Positions 972 to 10,523 of a stretch of 64,000 nt of DNA are shown here, piece after piece (position 1 is the stretch's first letter; the number at the start of each line of letters is the position of its first letter). Origin of the DNA: an uncultured Gemmatimonadaceae bacterium (lineage in GTDB: Bacteria; Gemmatimonadota; Gemmatimonadetes; Gemmatimonadales; GWC2-71-9); the NCBI GenBank assembly GCA_964647615.1, contig CAZYIV010000009.1, positions 42-64,041 of the forward strand, given 5' to 3'. The notes beneath the pieces were generated by a model, which ran no database searches, was not told the origin of the DNA, and was given only the letters and a program-made list of their open reading frames with translations. The position numbers and the translations under genes were made by a program.

Positions 972-3900
972 TCATGGAATCAGCTGGATCGCCTTGCCGT
1001 CGAACTTGTGCAGGTCCTTCACCAGCCCGCCCTGCATCGCCTCCTCGCGGCTGATCCCGAAGCCCACCTGGCCGCGCAGGTTGATCCGGCCCGGCTTGGC
1101 CGGCGAGGTGGCGGTCGCGGCCACCGGGCGGTCGAAGTCGGGCACGAACTGGATCGGGTCCGCGAACATCATCACCGGCATGCCGAGGAAGGTGGCGAGC
1201 GCCTGCAGCAGCGGGCGATTGCCGCCCTCCGCCACCTGGTACCACCAGAGGCGGCGGTCGGGAGTGGCGCGCTGCCGCTCACCGATGGCGTTGATCAGGG
1301 TAGCGACGCCCCGCATGCTCCGCAGGTTGATGCTTTCCCGGAAGGCCAGCAGGGACTCCATGGTGAGGGCCGGCGTCTCCGGCCGGGGCTCTGGGAGCGG
1401 CACCGAGAACCCCTCGGTGAGGCCCGGGTCAATCCGGGGGCTGAACCAGATGCTGGGGGTGGAGCCCGTGTGGAAGTCCATGCCGCCATATACGATGAAG
1501 TTCACCCGGGAGGCGGGCCGGGCCAGGATGTTGAGCAGCTCCAGGAAGCCTTCCACCTCCATGTCGTCGGTGGGTGGCACCATGCCGTTGCTGCGCTCGA
1601 TGATCGCCTTGAAGTCCACGGTGGACGGGTGCCAGGTGCCGTCCAGCAGCGCGCCGATCTCCTGCGCCACGGTGTTGAACCCGGTATCCCGGTCGGCCTG
1701 GCCGTAACACCAGACCTCCGCCACGGTGACCCCGCCGCTGCCACCACCGGCGCCGCCCTTGTCGGCCAGGCCGCCGGTGTCCGCCAGCAGGATGTCGCCT
1801 ACCGGCATCCCCGTGGCGCCGTGCAGCAGCCGGCGCATCGCGTCGCCGGTGAAGCCGTCGCTGCTACCGCCGCCACCGCCGGGCGAGCCCTCGATGCCCG
1901 GCATGAAGTCGCCGCTGCCGCCGCCGGTCCCGCCACCGCCGGACGATCCGCTCCCGCCACCACCACTCCGCACCCCCGCCGCATCCAGTGCGCGGGCGGT
2001 GTTGAGCGCGGCGCCCATCTCGGAGGCGTTCCTGGGCGTGCCGCCCTGGGCCGCGGGGCTCGCCGCCGTCGCGGCGGCCGCCGCGCCCTTGCCGGCGTCG
2101 ATCTTCCGCTTCTCCAGCTCGAACGACTGCGCCGCCATCATGTTGGCGCTGGCGATCTGGGCCTGGGTGGCCGCCGCTCCCGCGCTGGTGCCGGCCAGCG
2201 ACTGCGCCAGCCCGATGGTCGCGCCGAGCCCCGACATGTCGCGGAACATGCTGCCGTTCTGGACCGCGCCGAGCACTGCGCCCACGCCGGTCGGGTCGGG
2301 GAGCGAGGTGGGGCTCACGATGTTGAGCACCGGCTGCCCCAGCTGTCCCGGCCGCGCCTCGCTCGCCTGCGCCCGCGATCCCATGTTGATCGCCGCGATC
2401 TCCGGCGGCGCCAGCGGGATGGGGCTGTCCTGCCAGTTCCAGAACCGGGTGGCATCGAGCTTCTCGGCGGAGTTGGAGCGGCCCAGCACCGCCTCGCCGA
2501 AGACGCCGCCGGTGGGGATCGGCACCAGCTGCTCGGTGGTGGAGGGTCCGCCGAACTGGAGCCCGCGATCACTGAGCCACCTGCGCCACGCCGCCTGCGC
2601 CGCGCCGATGGCGCCGGCGGCGGCATCCGCGCTGAGGACGCTGTCGCGCCGGGCGGTGAAGGCCGGCATCCGGAGGACGACGTAGTTGCCGGCGATCATC
2701 ACCGGCTCCGGGTCCACCAGGTCCACCACCGGCAGCCCCTCGAACGCGAACGGCGAGAGCAAGAGCGCAAGCGTGGAGGCATCCAGCGAACGCCAGATCG
2801 CCTGGCTGTAGTGCAGCCGGTTGGCGTTGAGGTGCTCCACCAGCTCGGGGCGGAGCGCCTGGTCGCCGAAGCGCACCACCGTGAAGCTGGCGTTGGCGTT
2901 GAAGCTGATGGGAAGTGTCACGGGGAAAAGCGCGCCCCGATAGGTCAGCTCGAGCGTCACCTGTCCGGTGCCGGTGGCGGGGAGTGCGCCGGCGGTGACC
3001 ACCAGCTCGCTCAGTTCCGAGAGCGGCAGCGCGCTCGGCGCGCGCCACTCGAGCCCCGCATCCGAGAAGACCACCGCCGCGCCGCCGGTGGCCGGCTTGG
3101 CGGAGACGCCGGTGACCGGCACCCGACTGTCGCCGATGCGGAATACTGCGGCGGTGAGCGCGGCGTCGCGGGGAAGGAAGACGTCGCTGCTGCCGGGGCG
3201 CACCACGTCGAGGGAGACGATGCGCGATGCCCGCGCCAGCTCGATGGCGTCGAGCACCGGCCGCGGGTCGGTGACGGGGGGACGTGGCGGCGCCGGCGGG
3301 GTGGCGGGCGGGGTCGGGGGCGTGCCGCTGTCGGCGGTGGTGCTGTCGGGCGTGGTGTCGGTGGCCATACGGGCCATCATCGTGACCCCGCCGATCGTGG
3401 CGACGCCGAGCGCGCTGAGGAACGGCCGGCTGCGGACCAGGGAGGTGACCTTCACCGTCCCGAACTCGCTGCCGAGCATCTCCCGCGCCTGCCGGTCCAG
3501 GGCCGCGTCGGCGAGGACCCCCTGGTAGCGGCGGATGGTGGCCTCGTCGAAGGTCACCAGCTTCATGGGGATGAAGAGGCAGCGCTCGACCTGGTTCAGC
3601 TCCACCCGCACCCGGTACAGCTCCACCACCTCGTAGTACTGCACGGTGAGGGCGTGCATGTGGTTGTAGTTGGCCAGGATCCGGGTGGAGACGCTCTCGT
3701 GCTCCTGCTCCGAGACCTCCAGCACCAGCGAGGCGCGGCGGTCGCGCACCGAGGAGGCGGCCTGGTGGGTCGCGTCCATGACCTTCTGGCTCATCGAGGC
3801 GGCAAGGTCGCGGCTGCCGCTGGAGGTGGAGAAGCTCTCCGCGTGGGTCTTGGTCTTGGCGGCGGAGGCCGACCCGCCGATGGACACCGGGCCGATCGTG

Positions 3901-4826
3901 GCGCCGGCGCTGAGCCCGCCGCCGAAGGTGGTGGAGCTGCTGTCGGTGGTGGAGAAGCCGGTCTGGGCCTCGTTGGCGACCGCCTCCTGCACCTCGCTCA
4001 GCGCCCGGTTGTGGCTGGTGGTGTTGCTGAGCCGCTCCGACTCGCTGATCGCCTCGGTGCCGGTGGAGCGCGACTGGCGCGACCAGTCCACCACCGCGAT
4101 CCGGGTGCTCTCGCCCGGCGCCAGCGCCACGCTGTGCAGCAGGTTGCCGAGCGTCACGCCGTGCGCAAACCAGGACTGCGCGAACGTGAGCCGCGCTCCC
4201 ACCGCCGGCACGCTGAAGCCGAAGTCGTCCTGCACCGCGGGGGCGAGATCCACCGCGCCGGCCGACGCCAGGTCGCGGGTGGTGGTGGTCTCGACGTGGT
4301 CAATGACCACGGTGGAGTAGAAGCAGCGCTCGGTGGGGTACTCGCCCATCCGCGGCACCAGCTCGGCGGCGTCGTCCGCCGTGCCGGGGTCGGCGCCGGT
4401 GGCGACGGCCAGCACCAGCCGCGCGAACCGGAACGGCAGCCAGCGGCCCAGGTCGCCGACGGTGGCCACCTGCAGCGTGTCCCCCAGCGCGGTGGCGAGT
4501 TCGGGGGTGACGCCGCGGAGGGCGGTGAGCGGGGAGCCGGCCAGGGCCTCGATGGTGGGGGCGGGCTCCTCGGTGGCGTAGCCGCCGGGGACCCGGTCGA
4601 GGCGGCCCAGCGGGCCGGCGCCCTCGGACTCCGCCGCCTCCACGATCTCCCGCGCCCGGGCCAGGAGCGGCAGCGTCGCCAGGTCGAGGACCGTGCGGAC
4701 CCCCTGTCCCGCCAGCAGGGTCACCACCGGGTCGGTCACGCCCAGCAGGACGCTGACCTCCGAGTGCAGCACGGTCACCGGATCGAGGTGGGCGCTCGCG
4801 TGCCGCAGGCCGTCCTGGTAGCGCAT
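972..4826 (-). CDS. Large (1,284 aa) modular protein of unknown function
   Basis: Single uninterrupted ORF. It has distinctive non-low-complexity blocks (LAPGESTRIAVVDWSR, ILANYNHMHALTVQYYEVVELYRV), a Ser/Thr/Gly-rich core, a Pro/Thr linker, a long Ala/Gly linker and a 252-aa C-terminal domain. The opposite-strand ORF 1008-4859 is Arg/Gly/Ala-rich junk. Confidence 0.85.
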   Translation of the reverse strand: MRYQDGLRHASAHLDPVTVLHSEVSVLLGVTDPVVTLLAGQGVRTVLDLATLPLLARAREIVEAAESEGAGPLGRLDRVPGGYATEEPAPTIEALAGSPLTALRGVTPELATALGDTLQVATVGDLGRWLPFRFARLVLAVATGADPGTADDAAELVPRMGEYPTERCFYSTVVIDHVETTTTRDLASAGAVDLAPAVQDDFGFSVPAVGARLTFAQSWFAHGVTLGNLLHSVALAPGESTRIAVVDWSRQSRSTGTEAISESERLSNTTSHNRALSEVQEAVANEAQTGFSTTDSSSTTFGGGLSAGATIGPVSIGGSASAAKTKTHAESFSTSSGSRDLAASMSQKVMDATHQAASSVRDRRASLVLEVSEQEHESVSTRILANYNHMHALTVQYYEVVELYRVRVELNQVERCLFIPMKLVTFDEATIRRYQGVLADAALDRQAREMLGSEFGTVKVTSLVRSRPFLSALGVATIGGVTMMARMATDTTPDSTTADSGTPPTPPATPPAPPRPPVTDPRPVLDAIELARASRIVSLDVVRPGSSDVFLPRDAALTAAVFRIGDSRVPVTGVSAKPATGGAAVVFSDAGLEWRAPSALPLSELSELVVTAGALPATGTGQVTLELTYRGALFPVTLPISFNANASFTVVRFGDQALRPELVEHLNANRLHYSQAIWRSLDASTLALLLSPFAFEGLPVVDLVDPEPVMIAGNYVVLRMPAFTARRDSVLSADAAAGAIGAAQAAWRRWLSDRGLQFGGPSTTEQLVPIPTGGVFGEAVLGRSNSAEKLDATRFWNWQDSPIPLAPPEIAAINMGSRAQASEARPGQLGQPVLNIVSPTSLPDPTGVGAVLGAVQNGSMFRDMSGLGATIGLAQSLAGTSAGAAATQAQIASANMMAAQSFELEKRKIDAGKGAAAAATAASPAAQGGTPRNASEMGAALNTARALDAAGVRSGGGGSGSSGGGGTGGGSGDFMPGIEGSPGGGGGSSDGFTGDAMRRLLHGATGMPVGDILLADTGGLADKGGAGGGSGGVTVAEVWCYGQADRDTGFNTVAQEIGALLDGTWHPSTVDFKAIIERSNGMVPPTDDMEVEGFLELLNILARPASRVNFIVYGGMDFHTGSTPSIWFSPRIDPGLTEGFSVPLPEPRPETPALTMESLLAFRESINLRSMRGVATLINAIGERQRATPDRRLWWYQVAEGGNRPLLQALATFLGMPVMMFADPIQFVPDFDRPVAATATSPAKPGRINLRGQVGFGISREEAMQGGLVKDLHKFDGKAIQLIP

Positions 4827-4949
4827 CGGTTCCTCCGAAGGCAGGGCGGGACAGGATGAGATGGGGGAGACCCAGAGGGACGCGGGGCGGCGGCGGGGAT
4901 TCTCAGTCAGGCGGGGGGAGGGGGGGGTGACAGGGGTGGGGGGAATGCT

Positions 4950-5310
4950 GTCATTGCGAGGGCACCCCGGCGCCTCGGCGTCCCGCGGCTAAAGCCTGCT
5001 CTCCCCGGCCTCGGCGTCCCACGGCTAAAGCCTGCTCTCCCTCGCGCCCGAGTCGCGGCTACGCCGCTCCTGAGGGGCGCTCGGTCGTCGGCATCTGTCG
5101 CTGAAGCGACAACTAATCGCCCTACTGGCGCCTCAGGGGCGCTCGGTCGTCCTCGGCTCGCGCTGACATCGCGTCCCGCGGCTAAAGCCGCGACATCCCT
5201 GGCGTTCCCTGGGCGCGCGTCCCGCGGCTAAAGCCGCGACATCCCTGGCGTTCCCTGGGCGCGCGTCCCGCGGCTAAAGCCGCGACTCGGCATCTATCGC
5301 TGAAGCGATG
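4950..5310. repeat. REP array, left arm
   Basis: Repeated hairpin units cgcggc-taaa-gccgcg and gtcgc-tgaa-gcgac. It begins with gtcattgcgagggcaccccgg, the reverse complement of 6179-6199. Confidence 0.85.
5171..5286. repeat. 46-bp direct tandem repeat, about 2.5 copies, inside the left REP arm
   Basis: gcgtcccgcggctaaagccgcgacatccctggcgttccctgggcgc occurs at 5171-5216 and 5217-5262, with a partial third copy at 5263-5286. The copies abut with no spacers. Confidence 0.9.
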
Positions 5311-5392
5311 TGGGTCCCGTGCGGGGTCGAAACGCGCCGATGGGAGTCATGGTGATGCGAGGTGCAAGGCCGAAGGAAGGTAGGATGGTCGG

Positions 5393-5863
5393 ATGCGCCA
5401 CCGACTCTTCGTGCACCTGGTCTGGACTACGCGGGAGCGCGCACCACTGATTGACCTGCCCCGTGCGGCCTTCCTGGCGCGGTTCCTGCCCGCCGTGGCC
5501 TGCCAGGAGCGCGCCCGGATGCTCGCGATGGGTGTCGTGCGTACCCACGTCCACCTGTTGCTCCGACTCGATCCCGCGACGGAGATCGGCCGGTTGGTGC
5601 AGCGACTCAAGGGCGGGAGCTCCCTCCTGATCTCCCGGGAGGGCCACGGTGGTTCCGGAGGGCCACTCCGCTGGGCACGAGGCTACAACCTCGAGTCTGT
5701 GAGCCCCCGTGCGGTTTCAGCCGTCCTGCAGTACGTGGAGTCTCAGGCTGCGCATCACCCTGCGGAGGCGATCCCGGGCTGGCCCCCAAAGGAGTCAGGT
5801 GCACGCGTCGCTTCAGCGATAGATGCCGAGTCGCGGCTTCAGCCGCGGGACTGGGCGCAGTGA
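5393..5863 (+). CDS. IS200/IS605-family Y1 (HUH) transposase-like protein, REP-associated (RAYT-like)
   Basis: HUH motif in VRTHVHLLLRL and the catalytic Tyr motif YxxxQ in LQYVESQ. Size is 156 aa. The last ~19 codons are encoded by the right-arm REP sequence. Confidence 0.85.
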   Translation: MRHRLFVHLVWTTRERAPLIDLPRAAFLARFLPAVACQERARMLAMGVVRTHVHLLLRLDPATEIGRLVQRLKGGSSLLISREGHGGSGGPLRWARGYNLESVSPRAVSAVLQYVESQAAHHPAEAIPGWPPKESGARVASAIDAESRLQPRDWAQ

Positions 5864-6199
5864 CCGATGGGAGAGGAGTTGTCGCTTCAGCGACAGAAGC
5901 CGACGACCGAGCGCCCCTCAGGAGCGGCGTAGCCGCGACTCGGGCGCGAGGGAGAGCAGGCTTCAGCCGCGGGACGAGGGGTCGGGGCGCGAGGGAGAGC
6001 AGGCTTCAGCCGCGGGACGCGGGGCCGGGGCGCGAGGGGGAGCAGGCTTTCGCCGCGAGACGAGGGGCCGGGGCGCGAGGGAGAGCAGGCTTTAGCCGCG
6101 GGACGATGGACTGGGGCCCGAGCGCCCGCCCCGGTGCGGAGCACCCTGGGATTGCCACGGGCACCCCGGGCCTCCGGCCCGGGGTGCCCTCGCAATGAC
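5807..6199. repeat. REP array, right arm (inverted relative to the left arm)
   Basis: Four tandem ~43-bp units cgcgagggagagcaggctt(c/t)agccgcgggacg... span about 5944-6116. The arm ends in a perfect 14-bp hairpin, GGGCACCCCGGGCC (6159-6172) tcc GGCCCGGGGTGCCC (6176-6189). Confidence 0.85.
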
Positions 6200-6208
6200 G
6201 ACCTTCGA

Positions 6209-6259
6209 CTACCGTCCTTACCGTCCCTACCGTCCTACCGTCTTACCGTCCTACCGTCC
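6209..6259. repeat. Octamer/nonamer microsatellite (Y)YTACCGTC, about 6 units
   Basis: ctaccgtccttaccgtccctaccgtcctaccgtcttaccgtcctaccgtcc. The same run follows the same hairpin at 100-163. It abuts the stop codon of the minus-strand gene ending at 6259. Confidence 0.85.
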
Positions 6260-6963
6260 TAAAGATGCTGAAACGGCGCCTCATGCGGCTCCGACCGCCG
6301 CGCCGCCGCCTGCGCCGCCCACCCGCGCCGCACCACGCCTGTGCTGCCGATGCCGACGGCAAGCGCCAGCGTCAGCACGATCCCGCCGAACAGGATCCCG
6401 AACGCCAGCCGGAGCACCACCCCGCCGATGTGCAGGTGTTCGAGCGCCATGGCGATCGCGAGCAGCTGCACCAGCCAGCGGACCCCCATGCTGAGGAGCG
6501 GCGCGCTGTCGAGCCCCAGGTTCACCGCGCCGATGAGCACGCCCCGGGAGAGGAACTGCGCCAGCACCCGCCCCGCGAGGAGCAGCAGGATCGCGACGAA
6601 GACGTTGGGCAGGTAGTCGATGAGCCGGCCGACGAGGGTGCCGAGCAGCTCGGGGTCGAGGGCGGTGAGCCCCACGAGTACGCCGCAGAGCAGGAAGGCC
6701 CACAGCACCACCCGGCCGAGGAGCCGGGCGGGGCTCCGGTCCGGCGACCACTCCGCCAGCGCGGAGAAGACTGTGCCGTTGAGCCGGCTGTCGAACTCCA
6801 GCCGGCGCAGCGCGCGGGTGAGGATCCAGCGCGCCGCACTCCCCAGCACCAGGGCGGCGAGGATCGCCACCAGCATCACCGCCGCCGCGGGGAGCAGCGC
6901 GGCGGCACTCTCCAGGACGCGGGCCCACGACTGCGCCAGCGCGTCAGAGACCGATTGCCACAT
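6259..6963 (-). CDS. Integral membrane protein, 'conserved TM helix' repeat type (mechanosensitive-channel-associated family)
   Basis: Several hydrophobic helices. The N-terminal pattern is [38 protein letters not shown]3 bias is strong. Confidence 0.55.
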
Positions 6964-10121: not shown

Positions 10122-10136
10122 GCGCGGCGCTCGCTT

Positions 10137-10394
10137 CCCGCGGCTAAAGCCGCGGCTCGGCTACTGTCGCTGAAGCGACGCAAGCGTTTGGGTTCCCCGC
10201 AAGGCGACGCGTACGAGAGCTTTACATCTCTTTGGCGATAGATGCCGACGACCGAGCGGCCTTCAGGAGCCGCGAAGCGGCGACTCGGCCGCGAGGGAGA
10301 GCATGCTTCAGCCGCGGGACGAGTGGCTCGGGCGCGGAGCGCCGAGGGATTGCCACGGGCCCCCGGGCCGCCGCCCCTGCGTGCCCTCGCAATG
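10137..10394. repeat. Transposase-less composite REP element (short left-arm unit plus right-arm units)
   Basis: 10137-10179 cccgcggctaaagccgcggctcggctactgtcgctgaagcgac is left-arm type. 10235-10394 gcgatagatgccgacgaccgagcgg...gagggagagcatgcttcagccgcgggacgag...gggattgccacgggc...gtgccctcgcaatg is right-arm type. Confidence 0.8.
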
Positions 10395-10523
10395 CCGCGT
10401 CGGGCCGACCTTCCCACTCCTGTTTCAGGCGTGAACCACCGCCCCCGCCGCTGTTGCGCCCTTGTACCACTTCCTATCTTGGGGCGAGATCCCGACCGTT
10501 CCACGCCACCGCAGGATTCGTCC

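Follow-up and report, generated by a model that had tools for sequence, protein, structure and literature searches.

An unnamed protein family with a predicted giant beta-hairpin and exchangeable C-terminal domains, present in many bacterial phyla and a few haloarchaea

We have analysed a stretch of 64,000 nucleotides from an uncultured Gemmatimonadaceae bacterium (GenBank assembly GCA_964647615.1, contig CAZYIV010000009.1, positions 42 to 64,041 of the forward strand), hereafter called the window. A large gene lies on its minus strand at 972-4826 and encodes a protein of 1,284 amino acids (aa). An earlier note on this DNA, made from the letters alone, had described the product as an orphan with a pore-former-like core and the layout of a toxin. 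Judging from sequence comparisons, we assign the protein to a large and unnamed family, whose members appear to combine a conserved body, one very long beta-hairpin in this body, and a C-terminal domain (the tail) that differs from relative to relative.

The gene itself is well supported. The open reading frame (ORF) translates without an internal stop, and its GC content by codon position (0.69/0.54/0.95) is a coding signature in a genome of ~72% G+C. The ribosome-binding site and the conserved N-terminus agree with the call, and since the N-terminal sequence MxYxDGL is kept across the family alignment, the start codon is considered right. A near-identical protein is present in the protein collection, shown with 100% identity and 100% coverage. 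An antisense ORF of 1,283 aa (1008-4859, plus strand) covers the gene. This ORF was discarded as a high-GC artefact, because its GC by position (0.95/0.55/0.69) mirrors that of the large gene, as expected of a by-product of a gene on the opposite strand with high GC at the third codon position (GC3). The protein contains no segment resembling a signal peptide, in agreement with the earlier note, and none resembling a transmembrane helix; the most hydrophobic 19-residue window reaches 1.75 and lies within a folded domain. The features of the gene and its product are as follows, where AF2 denotes AlphaFold2, pLDDT its predicted local distance difference test score, and HhH helix-hairpin-helix.

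972-4826, minus strand: complete coding sequence, 1,284 aa (stop codon 972-974; GC3 0.95; homologues)
4831-4836, minus strand: Shine-Dalgarno-like GGAGGA, 4 nt upstream of the ATG (sequence inspection)
4377-4826, minus strand: N-terminal helical domain, aa 1-150, with two HhH-like motifs, GVRTVLDLA and VATVGDLGRW (AF2 pLDDT ~95, all-helical)
3417-4349, minus strand: beta-rich conserved core, aa 160-470 (blocks HS.ALAPGE.TRIA..DW and NYNHMHA invariant)
3726-4061, minus strand: predicted single giant beta-hairpin, aa 256-367 (period-2 conservation, register, covariation)
3861-3920, minus strand: predicted hairpin tip, aa 303-322, family consensus GGGGFGLSLGPLTLGGSGS (turn G312-P313)
3192-3416, minus strand: Pro/Thr-rich variable linker, aa 471-545 (low occupancy and identity; P 19%, T 15%)
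2517-3191, minus strand: middle domain, aa 546-770 (AF2 beta-sandwich plus helices, pLDDT ~85-95)
2217-2516, minus strand: second hyper-conserved segment, aa 771-870, RFWNWQDSPIP ... FRDM (Pro/Trp-rich, pLDDT < 50)
2052-2216, minus strand: long Ala-rich helix, aa 871-925 (AF2 helix 865-919; 36% Ala)
1731-2051, minus strand: Gly-rich flexible linker, aa 926-1032 (36% Gly; length varies in the family)
1791-1859, minus strand: junction (pre-tail) motif, aa 990-1012, DAMRRLLHGATGMPVGDILLAD (kept ahead of unrelated tails)
975-1730, minus strand: C-terminal domain 'type 0', aa 1033-1284, a predicted new alpha/beta domain (AF2)

All segments that the earlier note had quoted from the translation are found in place. 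Two crisp blocks, LAPGESTRIAVVDWSRQSR at aa 235-253 and ILANYNHMHALTVQYYEV at aa 383-400, enclose a Ser/Thr/Gly stretch at about aa 290-340; a Pro/Thr linker is recognisable at aa 502-517 and a Gly/Ala linker at about aa 926-1032; and the 252-residue C-terminal domain is predicted to be globular (pLDDT 85). Conservation peaks at aa 160-460 and 620-900 and collapses in the Pro/Thr linker, the Gly linker and the tail. AF2 gave confident models for the helical region of aa 1-145, for the strands of aa 166-225 and 401-470, including the long flanking strands of the core (166-178, 208-225 and 401-420), and for the middle domain, which showed only weak, generic beta-sandwich matches in Foldseek. The two most conserved stretches, aa 224-398 and 773-870, were modelled with pLDDT below 50, although AF2 did draw long strands in the region of the hairpin described below. 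Low model confidence at maximal conservation would be expected if the fold depends on assembly or oligomerisation, and we take it as suggestive only. For the HhH-like segments the outcome was mixed: the N-terminal family profile matched the HhH of a mycobacterial Y-family Pol IV (LWGVGPKTTKKLAAMGITTVADLA) at a marginal E = 0.017, but Pfam gave no HhH match at E <= 1, and an hhalign comparison of this domain with the C-terminal domain of E. coli RpoA was negative. A sister subfamily, introduced below, lacks the domain and has a different N-terminus. Based on its sequence, the HhH-like domain is a candidate intracellular sensor of a ligand (DNA).

The designation as an orphan does not hold. In a search of 5.8 billion proteins, 923 relatives were found at E <= 1e-3, of which the best 120 share 39-65% identity over the body, are nearly all ~1,200-1,450 aa long, and are named 'hypothetical' or after their tail domain. 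Relatives occur in over 15 bacterial phyla and on haloarchaeal megaplasmids. A pattern scan over one genome per species yielded 343 matching stretches, the closest in Acidobacteriota (57%), and others in Legionella, Coxiellaceae, Rickettsiales, Alphaproteobacteria, Paenibacillus, Actinomycetota, Bacteroidota, Chloroflexia, Planctomycetota, Nitrospira, Myxococcota, Verrucomicrobiota and further groups. Longer proteins (1,450-2,270 aa) make up a sister subfamily, with 24-27% identity over the core and middle domains. The distribution is patchy and scattered horizontally, and the same body is found in monoderm bacteria, diderm bacteria and archaea. Plasmid records with members come from Bacillus tropicus, Streptomyces clavuligerus and two Haladaptatus (haloarchaeal) megaplasmids. 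The plasmid of Haladaptatus sp. YSMS36 (L089, 410579-414652) carries an intact member of 1,357 aa with a DUF2272 tail among PIN, Fic, CopG and HTH genes, and a second Haladaptatus strain shows two matching places within one record. An intact member on a haloarchaeal megaplasmid indicates that the family has been transferred across domains. Searches by locus tag, accession and concept found no paper on the family.

The profile and structure searches, as proposed in the earlier note, returned no match to a characterised non-toxin family. With the whole protein, nothing significant was obtained from Pfam, NCBIfam, PHROGs or PADLOC-DB v2 (in the last, no family at E <= 1); TraK_C (E = 0.089) and one PHROG (E = 0.1) were taken as noise. 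Querying PDB sequences with the protein itself, or with profiles of the family, the N-terminal domain and the tail, returned nothing beyond low-complexity or marginal matches, and Foldseek of the AF2 body model (aa 1-930) against PDB and BFVD gave no match at E <= 1e-3. One possibility is that the protein is a structural component of a phage or mobile element, such as a virion-associated lysin or an ejection protein. Tail-associated lysins are typically large, with C-terminal muralytic domains and Gly-rich linkers, and weak Foldseek matches to phi29 collar and tail proteins were seen. However, none of the relatives occurs in 2.9 million viral contigs, no PHROGs family matches, and members lie among ordinary chromosomal genes, with no phage or conjugative-element context seen. 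The sole match in the phage collection, a 20-kb record labelled 'Bacteriophage sp.' (unverified; GenBank MT835996.1, our locus L088), encodes a sodium:solute symporter, an epimerase and further cellular proteins. No phage gene was detected in this record, and it looks like mislabelled actinobacterial chromosomal DNA. The viral-contig, PHROGs and neighbourhood results effectively refute the identification as a phage protein, which we consider scarcely credible.

The most distinctive element of the body is the region that the earlier note had compared to membrane-inserting hairpins. The Ser/Thr/Gly stretch is predicted to be the distal half of one hairpin of aa 256-367, with ~55 residues per strand and a length of ~15 nm if extended. 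This prediction rests on three independent and agreeing tests of the sequences and on replication in the sister subfamily. Firstly, conservation alternates with a period of two residues, unbroken over aa 249-360. The segment aa 258-304 is conserved at even positions and aa 319-371 at odd ones (Mann-Whitney p ~1e-5 each), so that the parity flips at the tip; P180, the power of the spectrum at 180 degrees, amounts to 18-19, whereas 2,000 permutations gave at most 11.4, and no helical (100 degree) periodicity is found in the hairpin's conservation. Secondly, a turn at G312-P313 implies the register i+j = 625, and this was the best of 30 registers for opposite-charge cross-strand pairs (0.088, against 0.044 for the next best) and also maximised hydrophobic-hydrophobic pairs. 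Among the pairs at this register are E262-R363, E264-R361, R274-D351, E286-R339 and L276-V349. Thirdly, the top column pairs by mutual information with average product correction fall on the antidiagonals 623 and 625 (295-328, 301-322, 293-330 and 291-332) and reach the base of the hairpin (256-367). The sister subfamily, only 27% identical in the core, repeats the signature, with a P180 of 25.7 and a leading antidiagonal centred on V506-P507 (a V-P-G turn).

The apex has the family consensus GGFGLSLGPLTLGG. Its apolar side chains (307, 309, 311, 314 and 316) are all on the variable, outward-facing side, and positions 303, 305, 318, 320 and 322 are Gly, Ala or Ser, with Lys in a few members. 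The apex of the sister subfamily, GFGFAVPGFVAGG, is likewise Gly-rich and apolar and differs in sequence. The persistence of a hydrophobic, Gly-rich tip despite this drift argues for selection on a hydrophobic apex.

By analogy, such a hairpin would have the architecture of beta-pore-former stems. Anthrax protective antigen, CDTb and iota-Ib, which move enzymes, and also aerolysin, lysenin and alpha-haemolysin, have a very long Ser/Thr-rich hairpin per subunit with an apolar tip, and we know of no hairpin among them that reaches ~55 residues per strand. The weak Foldseek list consists mostly of beta-pore-formers in the pore state (LukGH, lysenin, alpha-haemolysin, protective antigen and CDTb). 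With protective antigen, CDTb and iota-Ib the family further shares an enzymatic cargo beside a putative pore and a hairpin that is poorly modelled as a monomer. On the other hand, the cargo of the family is fused in the same chain through the Gly linker, and a signal peptide is lacking. Searches by sequence, profile and fold do not link the family to these or other stem-formers; Pfam, NCBIfam, PDB and Foldseek searches found no homology to the aerolysin/ETX-MTX2, leukocidin, Binary_toxB, MACPF/CDC or lysenin families, and its hydrophobic belt is much shorter. The comparison made in the earlier note is thus borne out as to a long beta-hairpin with a hydrophobic Gly-rich tip, but not as to membership in a known family; the belt looks short, and a pore is for us a conjecture.

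The second distinctive element is the tail. Clustering of the region after aa 900 gave ~37 tail types among ~200 proteins, and type 0, the tail of the window's protein, is the commonest with 94 members. Unrelated tails are found on bodies that are 88-96% identical, and one tail type is common to bodies as little as 43% identical. In pairwise alignments of near-identical bodies, similarity stops a few residues past the junction motif, whose family consensus is AFxRALWGxxGxPxxD (in the window, DAMRRLLHGATGMPVGD). Based on these alignments, the family appears to have a conserved body with a C-terminal domain exchanged by recombination at a conserved junction; in the comparison of homologues that the earlier note had proposed, the body is conserved and the tails are less so. 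Identifiable tails of the main family are Beta-lactamase2, DUF2272, SLBB, Amidase_6/NlpC-P60 and Amidase_2. Among 120 tails of the sister subfamily there were DUF2272 (32), GH25 lysozyme (17), Beta-lactamase2 (3) and PG_binding_1 (1), which are cell-wall domains and together make up 53 of the 120, and also tyrosinase and DUF4056 (1 each). DUF2272 and Amidase_6 belong to the NlpC/P60-CHAP-amidase papain-like group, alongside Tse1 and Tae3 (PMC10318531). Other tails show HExxH or His...Cys patterns by eye, and type-5 tails have a strongly hydrophobic helix-like segment. The identified tails of relatives are mostly peptidoglycan enzymes, and the majority of tail types have no identification. Of 117 main-family proteins, 65 end in proline, as do 34 of 119 from the sister family, across unrelated tail types (endings such as ...FDP, ...YHP, ...NEP, ...PLP and ...TLP), which suggests a C-terminal constraint independent of the tail fold.

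In these respects the family resembles Rhs, CdiA, LXG and MafB, which are reportedly polymorphic toxin systems: a conserved N-terminal or central region, a hyper-variable C-terminal domain behind a junction motif, the same tail on distant bodies and different tails on near-identical ones, and some tails from effector families. It differs from them in that most loci have no adjacent immunity gene, that no orphan cassettes of junction plus tail were found by a hidden Markov model search, and that no secretion or trafficking domain is present. Moreover, its majority tail type is exclusive to the family, whereas DUF2272, Amidase_6 and GH25 tails are widely shared. The polymorphic-effector layout proposed earlier (conserved body, flexible linker, terminal domain) is confirmed, and a junction motif and tail swapping come in addition, but a conserved immunity gene, orphan cassettes and a secretion system are missing.

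The type-0 tail of the window's protein is predicted by AF2 to be an alpha/beta domain (252 aa, pLDDT 85, predicted template-modelling score 0.79). It had no significant match in Foldseek against PDB, in PDB-profile or in Pfam searches, and no muralytic domain was recognised in it by Pfam, PDB or fold comparison; such domains are found only in relatives. A HMMER pass over 1.84 billion representatives gave 19 matches. Two of them are family members from the first search, aligned at their C-terminal ends; eight short ones that were retrieved are all of the family, being tail-bearing fragments or possibly free-standing copies; and three long proteins match only through many short, repeat-like stretches. 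As the ten matches of established identity all belong to the family, the type-0 tail appears to be a family-specific, integral module rather than a promiscuous toxin cassette, and going by sequence and model it is a new alpha/beta domain confined to this family. Some tails of relatives belong to effector families, but the window's own tail is neither a recognisable toxin nor shared with other delivery systems.

Type-0 members are frequent in the amoeba-associated Legionella, Fluoribacter, Aquicella, Coxiellaceae and Rickettsiales. This would suit a toxin against eukaryotes, which, after uptake or lysis by an amoeba or other predator, would form a pore in the host membrane and deliver the tail. 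An immunity gene would then be needless, and one Bacillus copy adjoins a TcA-like ABC toxin gene. However, type-0 members are equally common in lineages that live free (Acidobacteriota, Actinomycetota and Parvibaculaceae). Among the identified tails, peptidoglycan enzymes prevail, for which eukaryotes offer no substrate, and no eukaryote-like domains were found. We consider this explanation improbable.

The neighbourhoods were examined in the annotated loci of 12 relatives and by six-frame ORF clustering over 85 loci. No general partner or immunity gene is conserved over the 85 loci, where the commonest neighbour cluster reaches 10, and no secretion genes are conserved in either sample; the small immunity-like genes or secretion systems that the earlier note proposed to look for are not a general feature. 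Downstream genes are usually convergent, also beside amidase-tailed members, where no immunity gene was found. One sub-branch with beta-rich tails has a family of 144-163-aa ORFs without Pfam match at seven loci (L024, L027, L040, L060, L071, L072 and L082; for example L027:7979-8413). They lie 0-70 bp downstream of the large gene in five loci and overlap its 3' end or lie inside it in two, and are candidates for an immunity or accessory protein. An unannotated family of ~270-400 aa adjoins the large gene in four distinct genomes (five loci: L004/L005, L042, L043 and L069). In Intrasporangiaceae, an Hcp-family gene (PF05638) follows DUF2272-tailed members of the sister family by 11-32 bp:

L091:12361-12813: Hcp-family gene, PF05638, E = 7.5e-21
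L088:4733-5200: Hcp-family gene, PF05638, E = 2.1e-23

Intrasporangiaceae are Gram-positive, and a type VI secretion system is not expected there. The position of Hcp next to a Tse1-like DUF2272 tail recalls, by analogy, the amidase effectors of type VI secretion that are chaperoned by Hcp. Hcp as a general partner was rejected, as three further loci of the sister family and every main-family locus lack it. Y-family DNA polymerase (IMS) genes stand immediately beside the large gene at L001:7951-9721, L002:13939-15174 and L015:14001-15101 (in Fluoribacter, a metagenomic contig and Legionella wadsworthii, respectively; L001 also has a UmuD-like S24 peptidase), which hints at SOS co-regulation. 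Toxin-antitoxin, Abi, Fic or transposase genes occur near several loci.

Taking these data together, our best reading, held tentatively, is that of a cytoplasmically made, self-contained protein combining a pore with a payload, and we weakly prefer an action from the inside outwards. Upon a postulated trigger, the body would oligomerise, and the 110-residue hairpins, one per subunit, would form a long beta-barrel of ~15 nm when fully extended. The tip of the barrel would enter the lipid bilayer, and the Gly linker of ~100 residues would allow the C-terminal domain to reach the far side of the membrane, which is where cell-wall enzymes would meet their substrate. In the inside-out direction, the producer's own cytoplasmic membrane would be attacked, and the protein would be a lysis or suicide device in one polypeptide, comparable to a holin with its endolysin or to a bacterial gasdermin, with a role in abortive infection or regulated lysis. 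In the window's copy the payload would be the family-specific type-0 domain, to which no activity is assigned. For this direction speak the cytoplasmic origin, with neither signal peptide nor transmembrane helix, and the lack of a conserved partner, immunity gene or orphan cassette. The occurrence of one body in monoderm bacteria, diderm bacteria and archaea points to a partner that all of them have, for instance the lipid bilayer of the producing cell. The muralytic repertoire of the relatives' tails is typical of endolysins, the N-terminal domain looks like a DNA-binding one, and the patchy distribution, with toxin-antitoxin, Abi or transposase genes nearby in several loci, is in line with it.

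Two known systems are close to this inside-out proposal. In phage holin-endolysin pairs, too, a cytoplasmic muralytic enzyme (GH25, Amidase_2 or NlpC/P60 in the relatives) must cross the cytoplasmic membrane, with no signal peptide and no need of an immunity gene. The family differs in being a single polypeptide, with a putative beta-hairpin membrane element where holins have transmembrane helices, in not being phage-encoded, and, for the window's tail, in not being a known lysin. Bacterial gasdermins would, under this proposal, share a cytoplasmic origin, beta-barrel pores in the own membrane and a C-terminal region that must be displaced, as well as the patchy distribution of defence genes. 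Nevertheless, neither a gasdermin fold nor a PADLOC match was found, the family's protein is five times larger and has no conserved partner protease, and its C-terminal region is a full enzyme-like domain, whereas that of gasdermins is a short inhibitory peptide.

Several points weigh against the inside-out pore-plus-payload proposal. The apolar belt consists of ~5 residues (307, 309, 311, 314 and 316) plus Gly/Ala; it is shorter than the stems of canonical beta-pore-formers and probably too short for a canonical membrane-spanning hairpin, and the remainder of the hairpin surface is polar on both faces. To span a bilayer, each strand needs ~9-10 residues in which every second side chain is apolar. 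Neither fold nor profile searches gave a significant match to any pore-former (best pore-toxin Foldseek probability <= 0.12). Given the short belt and the undetectable homology, it is only the hairpin itself that we treat as established, and insertion, pore formation, oligomerisation and membrane binding are what we infer from it. A barrel of ~15 nm would far exceed the length needed for crossing one membrane, the activating trigger is only postulated, and PADLOC finds no defence-family match. No catalytic motif is recognisable in the window's tail, which leaves the word payload unproven for this gene. Finally, haloarchaea, which lack murein, hold intact DUF2272-tailed members. Archaeal peptidoglycan hydrolases have been argued to target bacteria (PMC12352652), and by the same reasoning these tails would point to bacterial targets outside the producer.

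This last point leads to the opposite direction, in which the protein would be a polymorphic, bacteriocin-like toxin. It would be freed by lysis or another route and bind a competitor, whose outer layer the barrel would cross, and the C-terminal enzyme would thereby arrive in the periplasm or at the cell wall, whereas other tails would go to the membrane or into the cytosol. We regard this direction as rather unlikely. Above all, the intact amidase-like-tailed copies in haloarchaea count in its favour (PMC12352652). The hallmarks of polymorphic toxins (tail swap on near-identical bodies and a junction motif), tails from interbacterial amidase effector families (DUF2272/Tse1-like and Amidase_6/Tae3), and the helix-like segment of type-5 tails, as in membrane-active toxins, also fit. 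The 144-163-aa downstream ORF at seven loci could be an immunity gene, the Hcp-family gene follows DUF2272-tailed members in Intrasporangiaceae, and a long barrel could serve as a syringe through an outer membrane. However, the protein has no signal peptide, secretion system or lysis gene, most loci, including amidase-tailed ones, have no immunity-like neighbour, and orphan tail or immunity cassettes are missing. One conserved body is unlikely to breach lipopolysaccharide outer membranes, thick Gram-positive walls and S-layers alike, and the commonest tail, type 0, was seen in no other toxin-delivery architecture among the matches of established identity. Bacteriocins released by lysis, such as pesticin and colicin M, likewise lack a signal peptide, are built from modules, end in a domain active on the cell wall and are sometimes carried on plasmids, but they use TonB-dependent receptors, immunity genes and often lysis genes, none of which is present in the family.

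A further explanation dispenses with the membrane: the hairpin may make a soluble oligomeric tube, fibre or scaffold, or, as a possible variant, a wall-spanning or DNA-associated structure that places a wall-remodelling enzyme. The largely polar hairpin with its short hydrophobic tip would suit this, and its conserved face has salt bridges alongside small hydrophobic pairs, a mixture known from packing interfaces. Contact with DNA is suggested by the HhH-like domain at the N-terminus, and in one clade the neighbour is a gene for Hcp, a tube protein. On the other side, housekeeping scaffolds do not usually show a patchy horizontal distribution or fast tail swapping. The sister family, with just 27% core identity, has kept the Gly-rich hydrophobic tip, and the family stands outside phage or conjugative-element contexts. 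We consider a non-pore role unlikely.

If the pore-plus-payload proposal is followed, the family may possibly represent a new class of single-polypeptide machines that are independent of secretion systems and horizontally spread, haloarchaea included. Such a machine would carry its own exchangeable enzyme through a membrane, either for lysis or suicide of the cell (abortive infection) or as a toxin that injects itself. Thousands of genes for proteins of ~1,300-2,200 aa in more than 15 phyla are annotated only as 'hypothetical' or by their tail domain. If the body is self-sufficient for membrane crossing, it would be a new route for enzymes, folded or unfolded, without Sec, Tat or a dedicated secretion system, and, if true, very long beta-barrels would become newly available to the engineering of nanopores. 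The collection of tails is a catalogue of candidate effector domains, mostly unassigned, type 0 included. Depending on the direction of action, the family would be a novel effector of defence or suicide, or else a novel kind of antibacterial weapon, used by archaea too.

In the window, the large gene is convergent with a TetR gene, with 33 bp between their stop codons. The TetR ORF extends over 27-938, with its true start probably near 345. A transposase unit lies ~115 bp upstream of the large gene's start codon and has the following composition, in which REP stands for repetitive extragenic palindromic and RAYT for REP-associated tyrosine transposase.

4943-6206: complete REP-RAYT-REP unit, with a 28-nt inverted repeat at its ends (4943-4970 / 6179-6206)
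5393-5863, plus strand: IS200-like Y1 transposase (RAYT) gene (PF01797, E = 2e-18)

The earlier note had taken the TetR and RAYT neighbours as a sign of an accessory context. This is not borne out, as these neighbours are not conserved in relatives; TetR and RAYT were rejected as functional partners, and since neither recurs beside relatives, this setting is specific to the present genome. A Y1 transposase beside a family member was met in a second case: in a metagenome-assembled genome of a deltaproteobacterium (L092:13638-14618), a PF01797 transposase fused to a DnaA C-terminal domain lies beside a GH25-tailed sister-family gene, which is probably a coincidence.

Inverted arrays of REP-like hairpins with the core CGTCCCGCGGCTAAAGCC flank the RAYT gene on both sides, with 10 copies at the unit in tandem arrays of periods 36, 43 and 46 nt, and a second, small REP cluster is found at 10134-10396. 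A direct repeat of ~115 nt occurs at 28-146 and 6146-6260, and its two copies bracket a segment of 6 kb in which the TetR gene, the large gene and the RAYT unit lie. The repeat is made up of a palindromic element, GGGATTGCCACGGGC(A)CCCCGGGCCTCCGGCCCGGGGTGCCCTCGCAATGAC, in which the copies differ only by a one-base indel, and a series of TACCGTCY octamers behind it. This pair of repeats may be the mark of an insertion or duplication, or a mere result of REP dispersal.

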